Source of the DNA: Acinetobacter phage vB_AbaM_ME3
Sequence record: KU935715.1
Length of the DNA stretch: 64,000 nucleotides
Strand: one strand, 5' to 3'
A model generated the notes under the pieces. That model saw only the letters and a program-made list of their open reading frames with translations. It was not told the DNA's origin and ran no database searches. Shown one piece after another: positions 10,631 through 46,522 of the stretch. The position numbers and the translations under genes were made by a program. The stretch's first letter is position 1. Every line of letters begins with the position of its first letter.

Positions 10631-11453
10631 ATCTACTCCTCTATATTTCTATAGATGTTGAGACTATATCTTCATCCTATTAAATAGGAGTTTTATGTTT
10701 CCCTTTAATCCGTTCGGAACCACTTGGCGGTAGACCTAAATTTAATTTAGGAATTACTAGTCGTTGAACCTTCCTCTATATTACTAGAGGCTTGGCTGCT
10801 GATTGTCCATTACAAAGAATATATTAATATATTCATCTTCTTTATTTTCAAACATTCACGCTCATCTTTACAGATCACGTTGTAGTTAAAGAAGCTTTAG
10901 GAGTTTCCAGCAATTAATAAAATTTTGTCGACTACATTACTGTAGAAGGTGTCAATCTATTATTTAACACTACTGAAGAAAGCGCTCATATTGACGTGTG
11001 ACACCGTCATAATTGTTAACAAGAGTTTCTTTAATTATCTCTTTTCATTTCCTATCTAAAGTTTGGAAATAGTTCAGACTATCTAATCACCTTCAACAAC
11101 AAATATTTGCTTTGTTAAGGTGTTGGGCGCTCGTGGAGAGGTTATTGTTATCTTACTCACTCTCTAGTCGTTTAACGTTCTTGTCTCTTAATTAAGATAA
11201 GACAAGCTTCGCACAGTGTCGCCTACTAAGCTTCCACTGTTAGCTACAATATATAAATATAATAATGATACAGACTATTGGAATCTAACCAATTCATCCT
11301 AAGTTTACAAAGATGTTTCCCAACATTCTAAGCTCTTGGGGCGTTCACCTTTCACCAAGTCTGCATTACGAATTATCTCGGATTGGTAGGCCTTATGGGA
11401 TTCTAACCCATGATCTCACAAGTTATGAGCTTGGTGCTTTAGAACGCTAAGCT

Positions 11454-11540
11454 AAAGGCCTGTAATACCGAAAGAATTGGCATCGCCTGGAGGAATCGAA
11501 CCTCTCACGTCCTTCCTGCTTTTTACGTACCAGCTTAGAA
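11454..11540 (-). ncRNA. tRNA-like element: T-arm, an anticodon-like hairpin with loop CUUCUAA (UCU), encoded CCA, but no recognisable D-arm
   Basis: Minus-strand GAGG-TTCGATT-CCTC T-arm; CCAGC-CTTCTAA-GCTGG hairpin; ends ...AGGCGATGCCA. Confidence 0.35.
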
Positions 11541-11666
11541 GGCTGGTGCAGGGGCAAGCGACACAGATGATTAATTTCATTTTGTAAATTTATATAAGTA
11601 ACACCCTCTTTTGATCGAGGTTCACCCAATTATTCGATTACCATTTCTGATAAAAGCCACTCACAT

Positions 11667-31673: not shown

Positions 31674-31851
31674 TCCATTTGATATGATTACAAGTAGAGC
31701 ATTGATACTTACGTTTACTATACATTAAATTTCTATGTTCATCATAACATGCTCTATAATCACGATAGATCATTACATGCTGGCAAGATTTTACTTTTAA
31801 TAAAATAATAAAGAGTATAATAAAAGCAAATATTGCCATTACCACCACCAA
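31636..31851 (-). CDS. small membrane protein with a Cys cluster
   Basis: TM helix MVVVMAIFAFIILFIILL; C-x-H...C-x2-C. Confidence 0.45.
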   Translation of the reverse strand: MVVVMAIFAFIILFIILLKVKSCQHVMIYRDYRACYDEHRNLMYSKRKYQCSTCNHIKWIDTRYGDPFSKV

Positions 31852-32534
31852 TGTATCATTACACGCTCACCTTCTTTAACACCTTTGTGTTCTAACCAAA
31901 GATAAATACGAGGGTAGCGTTCATACAACTCGGAATTAAGAGTAGACTTATAGAAGTAGTTATCATTTCCTAACTCATAATCAGCCCACAATTGTCTAAC
32001 TTCATCTTCAATAAAGGTAGGACAATCAGACCACTGAGCATCGAAAAACCAAACCTTTTCTACAGATTCTTGTTCAGTAACATTACAGCTACTACCAGTT
32101 GTAGAAGTGGAGTCATTAAGGCATTTATAGAATGTATCCTTCCCTTCTTCAATTGTTGTATATTTATCTTCAATTGGAGGAGCATCTCGAAGCTCTTCTA
32201 ATAAGTGAATATTATCTTTCCAAGATTTAATGTTTTCAATTTCATCTGAAGTAATAAGAATACAATCTATTAAATATTGAACTGCTTCTTTAAATCCTTT
32301 ATTAACACATCCTGCTAGTGTCATATGAGCATTAATATGATTAACAGGATAAATCCAAACTAAAGGTTCTACATTTTCAGGTATAATAAATTCAGCATCT
32401 TTATACCCTTCGATATAACCTTTAAGATTTAAATGAATGCCATTACCTAGAGTACAAAATAAATAACTAAGAAAAGCTTTCTTTGTTTTAAAAGAAGAAC
32501 TAAACATCAGTTTATAATCTAAATAGTCCATCAT
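31839..32534 (-). CDS. hypothetical protein (231 aa)
   Basis: ORF track. Confidence 0.55.
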   Translation of the reverse strand: MMDYLDYKLMFSSSFKTKKAFLSYLFCTLGNGIHLNLKGYIEGYKDAEFIIPENVEPLVWIYPVNHINAHMTLAGCVNKGFKEAVQYLIDCILITSDEIENIKSWKDNIHLLEELRDAPPIEDKYTTIEEGKDTFYKCLNDSTSTTGSSCNVTEQESVEKVWFFDAQWSDCPTFIEDEVRQLWADYELGNDNYFYKSTLNSELYERYPRIYLWLEHKGVKEGERVMIHWWW

Positions 32535-32994: not shown

Positions 32995-33066
32995 TTGAGA
33001 AAATCAGATTCGAACTGATCACGGCCAGAAATTATTCTAGTGCTCTACCAACTGAGCTATTTCACA
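32995..33066 (-). tRNA. tRNA-like gene with canonical D-arm and T-arm but a 6-nt anticodon loop (possible pseudo- or noncanonical tRNA)
   Basis: Minus strand: TGTGAAA-TA-GCTC-AGTTGGTA-GAGC-A-CTAGA-ATAATT-TCTGG-CCGTG-ATCAG-TTCGAAT-CTGAT-TTTCTCA-A; no encoded CCA. Confidence 0.5.
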
Positions 33067-33797: not shown

Positions 33798-33831
33798 TTT
33801 AATATCTCATTAAAGTGTAATAATTAAAAAT

Positions 33832-33948
33832 AAATCACATAAGGATGCTAATAGAAATCAGGAACGGTACAATCTAAGAACAACATTACATATAAGGACA
33901 AAATAATGAATTTTTTTTTGAAATTCTATTAGCATCCTTATGTGATTT
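33832..33948 (-). terminator. 25-bp perfect inverted repeat with 67-nt loop, followed by a T-rich tract on the minus strand; terminator-like, 34 nt upstream of the next gene start
   Basis: aaatcacataaggatgctaatagaa (33832-33856) is the exact reverse complement of 33924-33948; then TATTTTTAATTATT on the transcribed strand. Confidence 0.4.
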
Positions 33949-34326
33949 AAAAAGGTTAAAAATATATGGAAGACAGATAGTGTGTTGTTACACCAAATGC
34001 TCTAAGGGTCTGTATATGCGTCTCTAGATACTTTATTTCCACGTTGTTTCTCTAGATTAAGTGTAAGGCTTCGCCCATCATACACGTTGCTCCAGCATAA
34101 CTTCTAGAGGTGTCGGGAGCGCAATCTAACATTCATGCCTTTACCTAACCGCCCATATTACTTTCTGCATTACATATACAACTGTACTGGTCCTTCCCCT
34201 GAGTTTCTACGTTTAGACATCTTTTGGAATTAGATACTTATTACGGATCACTCTTGCAACTCTTTAAAAGATGGCTACCTTCAGGCCAACTTCCTAACTG
34301 CCTTTCATATATTTTCAATCACACTG

Positions 34327-34554
34327 TTATTGAGTTTGTTGCCAAGAAACTACTTTAGGGTAAGTTTTTAAATCATCAAGAGCTTCATCGATAGTATTAA
34401 ATCTACATGGACATATATGACCTTTAGTAAGATTTATATACGAGTAAGTATTATCATTTTTATTTCGTAATATCATTACTTCAACAATACCATCTGTTCG
34501 TGTAATTTCTAATTTCAAAAGAATCCACCTTGATGTAATGTAACTAAGAAACAA
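34327..34554 (-). CDS. hypothetical protein
   Basis: ORF track. Confidence 0.5.
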   Translation of the reverse strand: MFLSYITSRWILLKLEITRTDGIVEVMILRNKNDNTYSYINLTKGHICPCRFNTIDEALDDLKTYPKVVSWQQTQ

Positions 34555-34620
34555 ACTATTGCAACAACAATAAGTATTATGAAGATAACTCCTAATACCA
34601 TTAAAATAGTTGAAATCATA

Positions 34621-34956
34621 TTAAACTATTTCCTTAAAACGGATCCCAATTTCATTGTAGGCTTCTATATACGTTACAGCACCATCAATTTCAAAACCAA
34701 CTGGTTTTTCTACAATTTCAGTAATGAATCGAAGAAGCGTTCTAACATCAGTAATAGTAGTTAAATAAAAACCTTTTAATGGTAAACGAACTATCCATGT
34801 ATCAATAGAAGGGCATTTTTTGATACCTTGAATTAAGGTAACATTAATATCTTCTTCAATCATATTTTTTAAATTTACTAAACTAGCATTCATAGTAAAA
34901 GGTCTAGAAACTAATTGTTCTCTACATTCTTTTAAAACTTCTAAAGCTGTTTTCAT
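34621..34956 (-). CDS. hypothetical protein, paralog of 19338..19712
   Basis: MKTALEVLKECR N-terminus and TWIVRLPLKGFY...PVGFEI core. Confidence 0.55.
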   Translation of the reverse strand: MKTALEVLKECREQLVSRPFTMNASLVNLKNMIEEDINVTLIQGIKKCPSIDTWIVRLPLKGFYLTTITDVRTLLRFITEIVEKPVGFEIDGAVTYIEAYNEIGIRFKEIV

Positions 34957-34958
34957 AG

Positions 34959-35201
34959 TTACTCTTCAATATCTTGATATGGATGTAATACGTAATCTTC
35001 TAAAAAAGAATCTATTGAGTCCCATTCAAAGAAACAACATTGGTCACCTTCAGGACAAGTTGCAAAGATTTGATTTTTATACATACGAGCAATTAAAGAT
35101 GCATTAGCTACATCAAAATCCTCATCAGGGTATTTTAAAATAATCTCTTTACATTTAGATTTAATTATTTCTTTAGAATCAGATTCTTCATATATTTTCA
35201 T
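34959..35201 (-). CDS. hypothetical Cys-containing acidic protein
   Basis: ORF track. Confidence 0.5.
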   Translation of the reverse strand: MKIYEESDSKEIIKSKCKEIILKYPDEDFDVANASLIARMYKNQIFATCPEGDQCCFFEWDSIDSFLEDYVLHPYQDIEE

Positions 35202-35452
35202 AATTAAATCTCAATTAATTTATAAAATTACATTTACTGTTGGTTCTTTCGACAACACTTTTCGGATTTTATATGAAGATCGTATCAAAGGTTCTAGCTT
35301 CGATCCTCTGTTGTCATGCACCTCTAAACATTTGTGTGGTAACCCACTCACTGAACCTTATCAGCTTGAACTCAATGTGCCACCCAGAGATTACTCTGAC
35401 CTCATTTATGTTGTAAATGTAATTTTATATTTAAATAATAAGAGCCAAGTCT

Positions 35453-35535
35453 TCACAAGAGGATGGATTCGAACCACCGACAACAGTAGGGATTTTACTG
35501 CCTACAATACTCTACCGACTGAGCTACTCTGCAAT
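35453..35535 (-). tRNA. tRNA-like element with canonical D-arm (GTAGCTCAGTCGGTAGAG) and T-arm (GGTGG-TTCGAAT-CCATC) but an expanded anticodon region and a weak acceptor stem
   Basis: Hand parse of the minus strand; GTAGG...CCTAC stem encloses a 10-nt loop; acceptor pairs at only ~4 of 7 positions. Confidence 0.4.
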
Positions 35536-36905
35536 TTCCACTCTCTTATTATTTAGATGGTAAGAATATAAGTTAGTGTTAAGACGTTGATACATTAGGT
35601 ATTACCCTAACGCCAAGAGTTGAACTTGTTAAAAACCTTCTGTAACCCAACAACTATCTTTATTACTGGACAGTAATCATCTGAGATTATTAACCTATAC
35701 CGTATTCTTACCTCTAAATAATAATTAAAAGACATCTAATAACCTAACTTCAGATAAGGGTACTTACTCGATTATCATGAGACTCTACTAAATGTCTTTT
35801 AATTATTATTTAAAAGGTGTGAGGTACAACTCTCACAATGAACCATGTAGCCATTTTGGTTAGCGTCAAGCTGTATACAGCTTAGTTTCTCTAGTCAGCC
35901 CGCTTTAGGTTGTCCCTAATTGTGTGATATCAACACTACCATTTTTCTATCTTACGATAACACCAATGATCAAGTGCTTGTGGTACTAGAAGTCATTAAG
36001 GTGAATATGCCTTTATAGATCATACCAAATCTACAGGCCCATCACTCCCTTCAAATTTTATTACGCCACATCCTGTTTGGACTTACACCGTGTTGGATGT
36101 TATTTATCGGTAGAATTTGAGCCATTAACCAGAGCGCATTTATTAACTTATACTTTCATATAAGATTAGACCTTTTAGAGTGTCCTGATTTCTCAAGCTG
36201 AACTCTATTACCATCTCATATAAGTTGTCAGACTTATACTAACTACTTTTAGAATTACTCCTAATTTCGAGTGTCTCTACTATACAAAGGATAAATCCTT
36301 CTTAGCTATTATAACCATATGAAATAGAACCTCACTTAGAATTATAATATTTAGGTAATTGAGGAAAAACATGAGAATATAAAAGCATACTGCCATAATA
36401 TACGAGCCGTTAAGCCATCAGAATCGAACTGAGTCCTCTTTTATACCTCGATGCCCTTCATTATCGAAAAAGGGCTTTGGCACAATTGTGTTGTGCATCT
36501 CGTATCACTTGAGGTAATAACTCTTGGAATCTAGCAGAGGAGCGACCTCTCTTATTTTATATACCGATTGGATTCTTGTCTCGGTTTGTGGGTCTATTAC
36601 ATGTCATCGTTTCTCAGTTGACAGTGAGGGATCTACAAAAATTGGAATAGACTGACAATGGAGGTAATCATTAATCCCCTATTACAGAGATTAATCCTAT
36701 AGAATGCCTAAGAATTTCAGTTGCAATCTTACATTCAAAAGGACTTATATCAATTAGTATATTGGACAATATGTTCTGGAGACGGATTAGGCGTCTCACT
36801 CTTTTACTAAAAATTAGTAAACGCTTTTAGCCTCGGATTAAGAGACATTCCACTACATTTTAAGCTACAGACCTCAATACTTCCAATCATACTAAATTCT
36901 ATACA

Positions 36906-37346
36906 TTATATAGAAACTGTTTTACAAACTTTTGATAAAATAACATCATCAAAAGAATTCTTTGTTATTTGTTGCCACTTAATAGAAGAGGAATTTGCAT
37001 CTCTTACATATTTAGCATCTTTTGTAAATTGTACATACCTGACTATAGCAGATTTTCTTAAAACACAACTATAAATATTATAGATCAGTAATACATCACC
37101 ATCACTAGCAAAGTCATTAGTTGATGATTGTATATGCACAATAGCAGGAACTGAGTAAACTAAAGGACGAATTTCAACAATAGCTTTAGGATTTACATAG
37201 TACTTATCTGTACTTGTTTCTCCAACTTTATACCATGACTTTTCAGCTGTCATTAATTCGATATCACTTTGTACTAATTCTGCATTAGCTTGGATTGTTG
37301 TAAATAAGGAACAAGCCATTAAAGCTAAAATATAAAAATATTTCAT
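36906..37346 (-). CDS. secreted protein
   Basis: Signal peptide MKYFYILALMACSLFTTIQANA. Confidence 0.55.
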   Translation of the reverse strand: MKYFYILALMACSLFTTIQANAELVQSDIELMTAEKSWYKVGETSTDKYYVNPKAIVEIRPLVYSVPAIVHIQSSTNDFASDGDVLLIYNIYSCVLRKSAIVRYVQFTKDAKYVRDANSSSIKWQQITKNSFDDVILSKVCKTVSI

Positions 37347-39347: not shown

Positions 39348-39421
39348 TGGTCCAAAATCTGAGATTCGAACTCAGACGCAGGGTTTTAGGGACCCCTGTG
39401 CTACCATTACACCAATTCTGG
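39348..39421 (-). tRNA. tRNA with encoded 3' CCA; anticodon loop CCCUAAA gives a predicted CUA (amber-reading) anticodon with unusual C33
   Basis: Minus strand: CCAGAAT-TG-GTGT-AATGGTA-GCAC-A-GGGGT-CCCTAAA-ACCCT-GCGT-CTGAG-TTCGAAT-CTCAG-ATTTTGG-A-CCA (74 nt, every stem pairs). Confidence 0.65.
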
Positions 39422-40900: not shown

Positions 40901-41167
40901 TTATTTTTCATAAGGAATAAATTTCCAACGATCTAACTTTCCATAATATTGCAACTGATGATTCTCTAGAATATAGACAAAGCCAGAATCTTCTTTTTCA
41001 CATTTATTTAAAAAAGATTGAATAGTTTTTGAACTTATAACTTTAGAAGGAATCTTACAATAATGAGCATTGTCATAATAACGATAGAAATGTAATTGTG
41101 GTTTTGAATAAATAACTTCATCATAAACACAATCTAACATTTCACTAAATAAGACAAATTTAAACAT
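40901..41167 (-). CDS. hypothetical protein
   Basis: ORF track. Confidence 0.5.
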   Translation of the reverse strand: MFKFVLFSEMLDCVYDEVIYSKPQLHFYRYYDNAHYCKIPSKVISSKTIQSFLNKCEKEDSGFVYILENHQLQYYGKLDRWKFIPYEK

Positions 41168-41822
41168 TTACATTACTCAGTTTTTCTATTTCATTCATAA
41201 CTCTACTAGGTGGAAGAGTTAGTACTAATTTAAAGTATTTTCTACAAGCTTTTAAAGTTTTAGGATGAATACTAAAATTCAATCTAGAAGCGAACCTATA
41301 GACTCTAAGAATTCTAAGATGATCTTCCAAAACCCTCTCTTCTGCTTTGCCATTAAAACGTATTACCTTATTGTTAAGATCATTCAACCCTTGTTTAGTT
41401 GGATCAAGTAATGTATTAGAAAATGGATCATAGTAGAGAGAATTAATAGTAATATCACGTCTAATAGAATCTGTTTCAATTGTTCCTATTGAAACAGTTT
41501 CAGGTCTTCTTCCGTCTGTATAAGTACCATCTTTACGGAACAAAGCAACTTCATATTGCTTTCCATGTTTAGAAGCAATTAACACTAAGAAAGACTTTCC
41601 AGCTTCATTAATATCCCAACCATTTTCTAGTAAAGATGATTCAATATTATCCAAGTTTCCATCTGTTACTAAATCAAAATCGTTAGGAATATCACCTAAT
41701 AATAAATCTCTAACACAACCACCAACTAAATATGTATTAGTGGAATGATTATTAATAATGAGAAAAAGTTGAAGAAGAGTTAAATCAGAGACAATAGGAC
41801 GAGTATTCATATTATTGACCAA
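41160..41822 (-). CDS. Pol-beta-superfamily nucleotidyltransferase, CCA-adding enzyme/poly(A) polymerase head-domain-like (220 aa, no body/tail domains)
   Basis: LVGGCVRDLLLG...DFDLVT (the GGxVRD...DxD motif of class II CCA-adding enzymes). Confidence 0.6.
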   Translation of the reverse strand: MVNNMNTRPIVSDLTLLQLFLIINNHSTNTYLVGGCVRDLLLGDIPNDFDLVTDGNLDNIESSLLENGWDINEAGKSFLVLIASKHGKQYEVALFRKDGTYTDGRRPETVSIGTIETDSIRRDITINSLYYDPFSNTLLDPTKQGLNDLNNKVIRFNGKAEERVLEDHLRILRVYRFASRLNFSIHPKTLKACRKYFKLVLTLPPSRVMNEIEKLSNVNV

Positions 41823-45076: not shown

Positions 45077-46522
45077 TTACTCTTTAACTAATGCATAACG
45101 ATCTACTAATAGCGTTTCTTTCATAATAGCTTCAGGTGAAAACTCATCTAAAGTATTAGAACAAACTGCTTTTAATAGAGAAGGAGAAAAGCTAGATAAT
45201 AAACAAGCACCTGATTCATCATATTTAACAGGAAAGTTATTATTAGAAGGAGTGTTAAGAACCCAAAAGATTAATTTAGGACATTTTAATCCTGCTTCTT
45301 TAAACTTAACTTGAGCATCAACATATGCTGAGCTTTCACGAGAATTAAAATTAAACTGAGTGTCACTGAAGAAAACTAAATATTCAGGTAATTGATCTGA
45401 AGAAATATTATTAGAAACTACTAGATCTAATAGTAGTTTAAAGACACCTTCAACATTTGTACTATAACCAACTTGACTTTGAGCAATAAGATCATAACGC
45501 TCTTTTAAAGTTTTACAATCTTTGAGATCAACAAAAGAAGGATGATCTGCAAATGTAGTTACAAGGTTTTTAAATGGACCTTCAATACGTTCACTGATGT
45601 AAGCACCTAAAGTAATTGCAATATGTTTATATGTTGCATTACCTACAGCAGGAGCTTCCATTGAACCACTTAAATCAACTACAGGAAGAATCGATAAACC
45701 TTCTTTAATTAAATTAGGAAAGCTATTCCACTGAGCTTCTACAACAGGATTAGGTTCGAAATAAGGAGAATAACGAGACCCTAATATTGAATAAACTTCA
45801 GAAATTTCATGAAGAAATAATGTAGACGAATTTAAAGTTGCAGTTCCCTCACTCACTTTATTAATAAAATCATTAAAACGATCTGAGTCTTTAGACAAGA
45901 ATGTATTTTTATAACGATTAAAAGCTTTAGAAGGAACTGTACTATAATCTATTTCAGCGATACGATGCTCACACAATAAACGTTCAGTAACTTTAGCTCG
46001 TAAAGGGACAATTAACTGTCTTAATTCTTTAGGAGTGACCTTAAGATAAGAACGTAACATAGATGCAACATTGCCTTTCAAAGGTAACCACTTTGCAACT
46101 AATATCTGAGTTTCAGGATTTTTCAAATGTTCAGCTAATAGTCGAATAATCTTTTTCTTAATACGAAGATCAACATCACATTCTACTAAATTAAATAAAT
46201 CAGGATAATACCCTAACTCTACAATTTTAGATAAAAGATTAGTTTTTAAAAATACATCAATATCTATATGAGCTAAATGAATCATACAGAGATTAAATGA
46301 ATTACGAATACCTTTACCTTGTCTAATATCACGAGAATTCAAAAGATTACGAATTGCTAAATCTTTGTCTTCTAGATAAGCTTTTCGAAAATCTAAAATA
46401 GCTTCTTGAGAATAGTTAGGATCACCTAATTTAACAAAGAAATCTAAATTATGAGAAGCAGTACTAGAATAAGCTACTGCCCCATTAGTGGTTTGTGTTT
46501 TTAAAGCTGTTGCTGCAAACAT
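45077..46522 (-). CDS. vWA-domain protein, possibly a Ro60/TROVE-like RNA-binding protein
   Basis: C-terminal-half MIDAS-like motif VVDLSGSMEAP; 481 aa with a long N-terminal domain, matching the Ro60 TROVE+vWA layout. Confidence 0.4.
   Translation of the reverse strand: MFAATALKTQTTNGAVAYSSTASHNLDFFVKLGDPNYSQEAILDFRKAYLEDKDLAIRNLLNSRDIRQGKGIRNSFNLCMIHLAHIDIDVFLKTNLLSKIVELGYYPDLFNLVECDVDLRIKKKIIRLLAEHLKNPETQILVAKWLPLKGNVASMLRSYLKVTPKELRQLIVPLRAKVTERLLCEHRIAEIDYSTVPSKAFNRYKNTFLSKDSDRFNDFINKVSEGTATLNSSTLFLHEISEVYSILGSRYSPYFEPNPVVEAQWNSFPNLIKEGLSILPVVDLSGSMEAPAVGNATYKHIAITLGAYISERIEGPFKNLVTTFADHPSFVDLKDCKTLKERYDLIAQSQVGYSTNVEGVFKLLLDLVVSNNISSDQLPEYLVFFSDTQFNFNSRESSAYVDAQVKFKEAGLKCPKLIFWVLNTPSNNNFPVKYDESGACLLSSFSPSLLKAVCSNTLDEFSPEAIMKETLLVDRYALVKE

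Follow-up and report, generated by a model that had tools for sequence, protein, structure and literature searches.

Acinetobacter phage vB_AbaM_ME3 (sequence record KU935715.1) carries a real and conserved structured-RNA locus in a block that lacks long open reading frames (ORFs), at positions 35560-36900 of the 64,000 nucleotides (nt) of its DNA that we analysed (the window). The original prediction, made from the letters of the window, had proposed one or more large structured noncoding RNAs (ncRNAs) at this place, to be checked by an Rfam scan and by comparative covariation. Both checks were run. The scan brought only one weak transfer RNA (tRNA) to the cut-off. The comparison, over five strain variants, found conservation equal to that of the neighbouring genes and compensatory changes in five modules, which supports the proposal. 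We favour the reading, at a probability of roughly 0.55, that the block is made up of some ten stem-closed ncRNA modules that fold independently and stand in tandem, and that this array, with its Y-RNA-like and tRNA-mimic RNAs, would serve an RNA repair and quality-control island of the phage. The expression of these RNAs and their binding by protein are predictions.

Conservation and covariation among strain variants

The comparative set consists of the window and four strain variants from Logan assemblies, L004, L005 (with L006 and L007), L008 (with L009), and L011; L010 is an additional short contig. The variants were found by exact and homologous look-ups of a flanking 146-aa protein, which is 76-100% identical in them, and of the DUF2828 protein described below. 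A search of IMG/VR with the 146-aa protein returned no related loci. Among 50,697 GenBank phage records, no close relative of the window was present, and only one element of 77 nt was matched, in three Klebsiella phages.

An ORF-free gap of 1.65-1.8 kb is kept at the same position in all four other variants. Between the window and L008, the modules of the block are 78-96% identical and the flanking genes 75-89% at the DNA level. The alignment of the variants is a mosaic, in which near-identical stretches alternate with patches of wholly re-written stems, with insertions and deletions of whole modules, and with one relocation. In the 5' part of domain C, the stems of two hairpins (36480-36496 and 36453-36475) are fully re-written among strain types with the pairing retained (GCACAA/UUGUGC versus GUGUAA/UUGCAC; GCCCUU/AAGGGC versus UUUAGU/ACUAAA). 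In domain A of L008, AUUGG/CCAAU is replaced by ACCAG/CUGGU (RNAalifold, 5 variants).

Compensatory changes add up to 35 covarying pairs over five modules (Table 1), counts that carry no formal probabilities because the sequences are few and related. The module at 36373-36449, a circularly permuted tRNA mimic, has the lowest sequence identity among strains (60-65%), and 91.9% of its cells are paired over the 5 variants compared with 35-48% in slid controls; 0 of 500 shuffles attained the observed pairing value. As the mimic keeps only this much identity but more than 90% of its pairing, the pattern is hard to explain other than by selection on RNA structure. The array is conserved, and its helices are under selection for pairing.

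A noncoding tract read on the minus strand

The longest ORF in 35560-36900 on both strands has 43 aa, so that the predicted lack of any ORF of at least 60 aa over 1.34 kb was borne out. All six frames of 35557-36905 are interrupted repeatedly by TAA, by TAG, and by TGA. Hence, stop-codon reassignment is ruled out as the cause of the ORF gap, and no reassigned stop hides a gene here, despite a phage tRNA with a CTA anticodon. The raised guanine + cytosine (GC) content that had been noted is likewise seen, with values of 0.33-0.39 for the block, compared with 0.27-0.30 for the flanks and 0.296 for the entire window. The full ORF-free tract is larger than the first block and spans 35202-36905. 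Its sole ORF, 35311-35556 on the plus strand, runs antisense over a tRNA-like gene and sits in a segment missing from L005 and L008.

In this large, AT-rich phage, nearly all genes lie on the minus strand, and the block is read in the direction of its flanking genes. T-loop motifs and covariance models score on the minus strand only; thermodynamics is unable to assign the strand. By single-sequence folding energy, only domain I, an 88-nt hairpin, and, weakly, domain A stand out. Both hairpins quoted in the original prediction exist but are displaced by 10-25 nt: the T-loop hairpin, on the minus strand, is at 36417-36433 instead of ~36390-36410, and the gccctt/aagggc hairpin is at 36453-36475 instead of 36443-36466. 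Over 33800-37100, Rfam 15 at the gathering threshold and at E ≤ 10 gave nothing beyond a weak tRNA except chance-level matches to microRNA, CRISPR-DR, icd-II, and small nucleolar RNA models. A group I intron-like RNA, which had been among the candidates, found no support, as even at E ≤ 10 the block was not matched by Intron_gpI.

A circularly permuted tRNA mimic built like YrlA

Compared with a tRNA, the mimic is open where the anticodon loop would be and is closed off at the acceptor end, and the YrlA effector domain is arranged likewise. Its elements follow in the order of a 13-bp closing (anticodon-like) stem, a variable loop of 4-5 nt, the T arm (36417-36433, CUCAG UUCGAUU CUGA), a capped acceptor-like hairpin (36406-36415), a 2-nt linker (UC in the window, UA in relatives), the D arm (36387-36403, GUAU AUUAUGGCA GUAU), 1 nt, and the closing stem. 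The literature describes YrlA as a circular permutation of a tRNA in which the acceptor stem is closed and the elements have this same order, and published YrlA RNAs are found in phages too (10.1101/312249; PMC4201824).

The likeness to YrlA extends to the conserved nucleotides of the T-loop and the D-loop, which are the same. All variants in the alignment have the T-loop UUCGAUU, the D-loop reads AUUAUGG(C/A)A with A14, GG, and the terminal A, and the window sequence has the elbow nucleotides U54, U55, C56, A58, A14, G18, G19, and A21. An independent homolog was found in L070 (45.9 bits, E = 2e-8, covariance model R2); the plus strand gave no match. A second RNA of the cluster, domain I, has a T arm as YrlB does, and a protein of predicted Ro60 fold is encoded in the same phage genome. 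YrlA and Y RNAs are characterised by their physical association with Ro60 and by modifications that TruB and DusA introduce. Unlike YrlA, the mimic has an acceptor-like hairpin of just 3-4 bp and is one module in a 1.3-1.7 kb array of other structured RNAs.

A predicted Ro60 fold in the DUF2828 protein

The candidate protein partner of the mimic is encoded by ORF 45077-46522, which sits 8.6 kb upstream of the block on the same strand. In contrast to the Ro60 partner of YrlA RNAs, it is not a TROVE protein in Pfam, in which the TROVE model gives no match and only DUF2828 and DUF7788 are seen; it is 13-15% identical to solved Ro60 structures, and its profile match to Ro60 is weak (E = 0.4). The AlphaFold2 model of the protein has a predicted local distance difference test (pLDDT) score of 87 and a predicted template modelling (pTM) score of 0.85. 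Its top nine Foldseek matches in the PDB are full-length Ro60/TROVE proteins from Thermus phage phiLo, human, Xenopus, and Deinococcus, with E values from 8e-9 to 2e-7 and template modelling (TM) scores of 0.39-0.61 (0.54-0.61 for eight of the nine; 0.39 for Deinococcus Rsr); lower matches cover the vWA domain only. D283, S285, and S287 of the metal ion-dependent adhesion site (MIDAS) are invariant in the alignment of the DUF2828 protein. According to the model, the protein is predicted to combine a HEAT-repeat ring with a C-terminal vWA domain in the Ro60 fold and to represent a cryptic Ro60-like family.

DUF2828 homologs in IMG/VR number more than 564 matches. The gene is typically located directly downstream of a tRNA array in the same orientation; in L012 and L013, the RNA-repair genes for Hen1 and Pnkp come immediately after it.

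Permuted tRNA mimics in DUF2828 loci of other phages

The survey for further mimics used covariance models R2 and R3 and counted matches with scores of 25 bits or more and no overlap with a tRNA gene. An ARAGORN overlap filter removed many weak matches composed of the T arm of one tRNA and the D arm of the next, a dimeric-tRNA artefact of permuted-mimic searches that has been noted earlier (PMC4201824). Of the 84 DUF2828 loci, 12 had permuted tRNA mimics, which without exception share the orientation of the gene and lie 0.3-9.4 kb from it. The scores reached 72 bits in L070 and 58-63 bits in the family of L050, L023, and L059; L012, a distant relative of this phage, is among the loci. In Klebsiella phage KP13-26 (L001; OP617743.1), an unannotated mimic at 5406-5467 on the minus strand lies ~310 nt from the end of the DUF2828 gene, and this cultivable phage carries the 77-nt RNA in addition to mimic and gene. 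In L054, the distance is 0.6 kb. Control loci, which were picked by a generic D-arm pattern, held a mimic in 2 of 80 cases, both being the sequence that the pattern had matched. Per locus, the enrichment in DUF2828 loci over control loci gives p = 0.0098 (Fisher). The link between mimic and DUF2828 is suggestive, not established.

DUF2828 loci also hold phage transfer-messenger RNAs (tmRNAs) at L049 7325-7685 and L035 18900-19270, which score 138-144 bits with beta_tmRNA and overlap a permuted-tmRNA model match, and group I introns at L049 6728-6955 and L037 16963-17183.

A 77-nt RNA common to the tRNA arrays of unrelated phages

The 77-nt module is a small RNA common to tRNA arrays of unrelated phages. 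It forms a three-way junction with the helices P1 (CGCU/GGCG), P2 (GGU-AAU[GGCUCAA]AUU-ACC), and P3 with the conserved loop GGUGnAAGnCCAAA; the linker is GAUAAAUA. The 12 distinct copies come from the window lineage, Klebsiella Stephanstirmvirinae phages, a 381-kb IMG/VR contig, a contig of a Flavobacteriaceae metagenome-assembled genome that holds 20 tRNAs, and 6 metagenome contigs. In three Klebsiella Stephanstirmvirinae phages, the matching sequence (87% identity) is an unannotated spacer between tRNA-Arg and tRNA-Phe. The RNA is co-oriented with tRNA genes wherever any lie close, and in other phages it stands alone among tRNAs. Its 5' 35 nt are invariant in the 12 copies, save one variable or absent base after CGCUC, and 5 of the 6 pairs of P3 covary with 100% pairing.

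RNA C and RNA D of phage T4 are stable small structured RNAs inside the phage tRNA cluster, co-oriented and interspersed with tRNA genes. The 77-nt RNA fits the same description. It differs in its invariant 35-nt 5' half, common to very different phages, and we know of no description of such a half for the T4 RNAs. The 77-nt RNA was also considered as a partner of the Ro60-like protein and rejected, as it occurs in 0 of 80 DUF2828 loci from IMG/VR and was not found in E. coli genomes.

Anatomy of the array

The modules are listed in Table 1 in their 5' to 3' order on the minus strand.

Table 1 Modules of the array, the candidate protein gene, and the pairs with compensatory changes in the sequences compared
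Feature	Position	Strand	Sequences	Predicted pairs	Compensatory pairs	Description
Domain A	36750..36897	(-)	5	41	6	Multi-branch, closed by a 13-bp long-range helix UAU[G]AUUGGA / UCCAAUAUA
Module X	36698..36752	(-)				Movable ~55-nt segment AUAAGUCCUUUUGAAUGUAAGAUUGCAACUGAAAUUCUUAGGC
Domain B	36563..36697	(-)	5	39	5	10-bp hairpin; long-range helix GUCUAUUCCA / UGGAAUAGAC around nested hairpins; ACCGA...UCGGU hairpin
Domain C, 5' part	36451..36562	(-)				Hairpins 36536-36550 (AGAGG UCGCU CCUCU), 36480-36496, and 36453-36475
tRNA mimic	36373..36449	(-)	5	25	10	Circularly permuted, YrlA type
Domain D	36150..36372	(-)	5	54	9	Closing helix AUUACC / GGUAAU and four internal helices
77-nt three-way-junction RNA	36061..36139	(-)	12 distinct copies	19	5	Homologs in unrelated phages
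Variable segment F	35986..36060	(-)				Strain-variable
Domain G	35813..35985	(-)				3' end is a terminator-like hairpin 35818-35837 followed by CCUUUU (consensus scan)
88-nt hairpin insertion	35725..35812	(-)				Specific to the strain of the window; 27-nt arms, 93% complementary
Domain I	35546..35724	(-)				Near-continuous closing helix of ~28 bp, UUAUUAUUUAGAGGUAAGAAUA / UAUUCUUACCAUCUAAAUAAUAA
Non-canonical tRNA	35454..35532	(-)				Flanking 16-nt inverted repeat 35429-35444 / 35543-35558
Module K	35210..35440	(-)				Stem-closed, 24-nt arms 35214-35237 / 35413-35436
Ro60-like protein gene	45077..46522	(-)				DUF2828 and DUF7788 (Pfam); candidate protein partner

Modularity is seen in module X, which is relocated or missing in some strains, and in entire hairpin modules that are inserted or deleted among them. 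Module X lies 3' of domain A in the window, L004, and L005 and 5' of it in L008 and L009, and it is missing from L011. The 5' part of domain C carries an insertion of ~135 nt in L005 and L011. Segment F has ~66-75 nt in the window versus ~196 nt of unrelated, hairpin-rich sequence in L004, L005, and L008. The 88-nt hairpin (folding z-score -3.15) is missing from L004, L005, and L008; a repeated miniature inverted-repeat transposable element (MITE) is unsupported as its origin, the hairpin being present in a single copy within the window. Module K is found in the window and L004 and is missing from L005 and L008.

Domain A has a folding z-score of -1.9. At 36754-36893 on the minus strand, it gives a full-length, sub-threshold match to icd-II (Rfam RF04189; 22.9 bits against a cut-off of 99, E = 0.81) that takes in the string GCUAAAAGCG and is probably due to chance. 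Domain G is 83-84% identical among variants, and RNAalifold proposes 47 pairs in it, for which the variation is too low to test them. Domain I, with a folding z-score of -5.2, is matched by 0 of 200 shuffles and is 95-98% identical among variants, which leaves covariation uninformative. Its interior holds a T arm (CAAG UUCGAUU CUUG, 35615-35629) and an adjoining 8-bp hairpin; in the alignment, the T-loop reads UUCAACU in the window, where relatives have UUCGAAU or UUCGAUU.

The tRNA-like element that had been seen adjoining the block is confirmed at 35454-35532. It has the cloverleaf of a canonical tRNA (RF00005) with standard D and T arms and reaches the Rfam tRNA cut-off (30.0 bits versus 29). 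Unlike a canonical tRNA, it has a bulged acceptor stem and an anticodon loop of 9 nt (CAGUAAAAU) between GUAGG and CCUAC, not the standard 7 nt, and is not called by ARAGORN. The anticodon arm is identical in 4 variants, and in L005 acceptor pairs change from G-U to A-U and from C-G to U-G. The other tRNA-like modules are permuted or partial and unchargeable as they stand. The suggestion of a degenerate tRNA cluster holds insofar as tRNA-like parts exist; these are not decayed genes but an ordered set of permuted mimic, T-arm module, and non-canonical tRNA.

Proposed mechanism and points against it

In the reading that we favour, the array would be made as one or a few precursor transcripts. 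Stable RNAs would be released from these in two ways: by cleavage at the long, perfect closing duplexes (23-28 bp), which resemble RNase III substrates, and by RNase P or Z acting on the tRNA-like structures. A Y-RNA-like partner for the Ro60-like ring protein of the phage would be provided by the tRNA mimic and possibly by the other module with a T arm, and the mimic may gate this protein or tether it to enzymes of RNA decay and repair. The setting would be an RNA-maintenance island: the window holds a CCA-adding enzyme (41160-41822), a suppressor-type tRNA, tRNAs with odd anticodon loops, a group I intron, and the DUF2828 and DUF7788 protein, and more distant relatives add Hen1 and Pnkp.

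Several results weigh against this reading. Bacterial Y RNAs are usually adjacent to rsr, whereas 8.6 kb separate the block from the Ro60-like gene. The mimic has no Rfam match, Y RNA included, in a scan of 241 nt (36340-36580) at E ≤ 10, although the presence of a YrlA-specific model in Rfam is unconfirmed. The published 5'-strand motif of YrlA for Ro60 binding, GNCGAAN0-1G (PMC4201824), is not conserved in the mimic: it is only approximated in the window and L008 (AUCGAGG; CAUCGAGG beside a possible bulged C) and is missing from L004, L005, and L011, which have the unrelated UUUAGAU and UAAAGAU. The 77-nt RNA is absent from the 80 IMG/VR loci with DUF2828. The enrichment of mimics in DUF2828 loci is not significant when normalised per base (p = 0.07) or per tRNA (p = 0.11), and as DUF2828 genes adjoin tRNA arrays anyway, the co-location could reflect the array and not the protein. 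A convincing promoter was not found in the block, in which a consensus scan gave 15 sites against 11.4 expected, no better than shuffles. Finally, several modules have single-sequence folding energies no better than those of shuffled sequences.

Comparison with GOLLD and ROOL and further alternatives

The block, or most of it, might instead be one giant ornate RNA of the GOLLD or ROOL kind, a single transcript of ~1.3 kb with higher-order structure that possibly forms a multimeric particle and has tRNA-like elements embedded, an explanation that we consider unlikely. GOLLD and ROOL are large, ORF-free structured RNA regions of phages and prophages, and they have been reported near tRNAs, with tRNAs sometimes inside (PMC12286853; PMC5737381). 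The window offers this context with its phage-type gene content and its tRNAs; moreover, the block is continuous, contains many multi-helix junctions, and has only one terminator-like site on the minus strand (consensus scan). L070 adds to the case. Its mimic, the closest homolog of the one in the window, shares a 1.57-kb ORF-free block (5240-6810, in a 364-kb viral contig, 4.6 kb upstream of the DUF2828 gene) with a bona fide GOLLD at 5995-6458. The order in this block is a sigma-70-like promoter (TTGACA-17-TACAAT), the permuted mimic with an 18-bp stem, and GOLLD, ~550 nt downstream of the mimic and embedding a tRNA with an 8-nt anticodon loop.

In the window, however, the covariance models of GOLLD (RF02032) and ROOL have no match at the gathering threshold or at E ≤ 10, though the GOLLD model works on L070 as a positive control (203.5 bits), and no primary-sequence similarity between the window block and the L070 GOLLD block was found. 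A single long transcript that forms a homo-oligomeric particle is a hallmark of GOLLD and ROOL, and the window block shows no sign of a single transcript or of multimer formation. Its modules are reordered, present or absent, or allele-swapped among close strains, every module closes on itself, no supported inter-module helix was found, and the 77-nt module occurs alone elsewhere. As the modules shuffle from strain to strain, we argue that they are separate RNAs.

That the tRNA-like modules act without the Ro60-like protein, as decoys or sponges for host tRNA-directed defence nucleases or for tRNA-modifying and tRNA-processing enzymes, or that they are mere punctuation for RNase P and Z, appears rather improbable to us. 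Several tRNA-like genes in the window are non-decoding (the anticodon loop has 9 nt in one and 6 nt in another, and a third has no D arm), the elbow nucleotides that the mimic retains in its T- and D-loops are those recognised by tRNA-binding enzymes, and the two mimics of the control loci have no DUF2828 gene in range. On the other hand, anticodon nucleases usually attack the anticodon loop, which the mimic lacks, the sequence reveals no defence or nuclease target, and the co-orientation and occasional tight adjacency with DUF2828 genes would be left unexplained.

We disfavour, as very improbable, the view that the block has no function as RNA and consists of decaying remnants of tRNA or protein genes or of a DNA-level element (for instance, an origin or a hotspot of recombination). 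Many indels and strain-specific insertions, the modules that fold no better than shuffled sequence, and short AT-rich inverted repeats (UAAAUAAUAA / UUAUUAUUUA) recurring at module borders would be in line with it; the border motif CUCUUAUUAUUUA is no more frequent than expected by chance. However, compensatory double substitutions hold 35 helix positions paired, the most divergent module is still 92% paired, conservation equals or exceeds that of the flanking genes, and unrelated phages, too, have the mimic and the 77-nt RNA. An origin region, which the original prediction had also listed, is not borne out, as the block has no direct-repeat family of more than 2 copies, the GC skew is negative on either side of it, and selection acts on RNA pairing.

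Other RNA features of the window

The only group I intron of the window (RF00028, 81 bits) is at 10639-10975 on the minus strand, in an ORF-poor stretch downstream of tRNA-Leu(tag) (11267-11365) and tRNA-Met (11384-11461). At ~11475-11565 on the minus strand, a tRNA-like sequence missed by ARAGORN and Rfam has an anticodon arm (CCAGC CUUCUAA GCUGG), a long variable arm, a T arm (AGAGG UUCGAUU CCUCC), and a 3' GCCA, without a recognisable D arm. The tRNA at 32995-33066 (minus strand, 45 bits with Rfam), to which ARAGORN assigns a 2-nt "anticodon" reflecting a shortened anticodon loop, is kept in relatives (L005 14643-14714, L008 11032-11103). The tRNA with the CTA anticodon, of amber-suppressor type, is located at 39348-39421 on the minus strand and is also kept in all strain variants (L005 7190-7264, L008 4534-4608, L011 17038-17111), a hint that TAG may be read through or recoded in some part of this genome.

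A third conserved ORF-free block at 33798-34326 on the minus strand contains a module closed by 26-nt inverted-repeat arms (33831-33856 / 33924-33949), apparently of a kind with the stem-closed modules of the array. The three blocks that had been called similar are of the same general kind, ORF-free with RNA elements, but on comparison no common motif was found. Two segments, 34120-34573 (454 nt, with the 75-aa ORF 34327-34554) and 31844-32437 (594 nt, inside the 231-aa ORF 31839-32534), are missing from the 93-97% identical strain L004 and may be mobile insertions.

Significance for phage RNA biology

The locus adds several covariation-supported RNA motifs without a known family, among them the 77-nt RNA. 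If the favoured reading is true, this phage would have both a Ro60-type protein and Y-RNA-like mimics in its tRNA and RNA-repair island, a pairing that can be tested. DUF2828, if it is a Ro60 family, would have been invisible to the earlier surveys of Y RNAs, which began from TROVE annotation. The mimic of L070, directly upstream of GOLLD, may provide a handle on the function of giant ornate phage RNAs. More speculatively, and as a long shot, the block and its relatives could form a new class of phage RNA locus in which a Y-RNA-like mimic is built into a large multi-domain or co-processed set of RNAs, analogous to GOLLD and in L070 joined with it, and recruits the widespread Ro60 family DUF2828 to phage tRNA islands. 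If true, three subjects would come together in a single pathway: GOLLD and ROOL as giant RNAs of orphan status, quality control by Ro60 and Y RNAs, and the tRNA arrays of phages.

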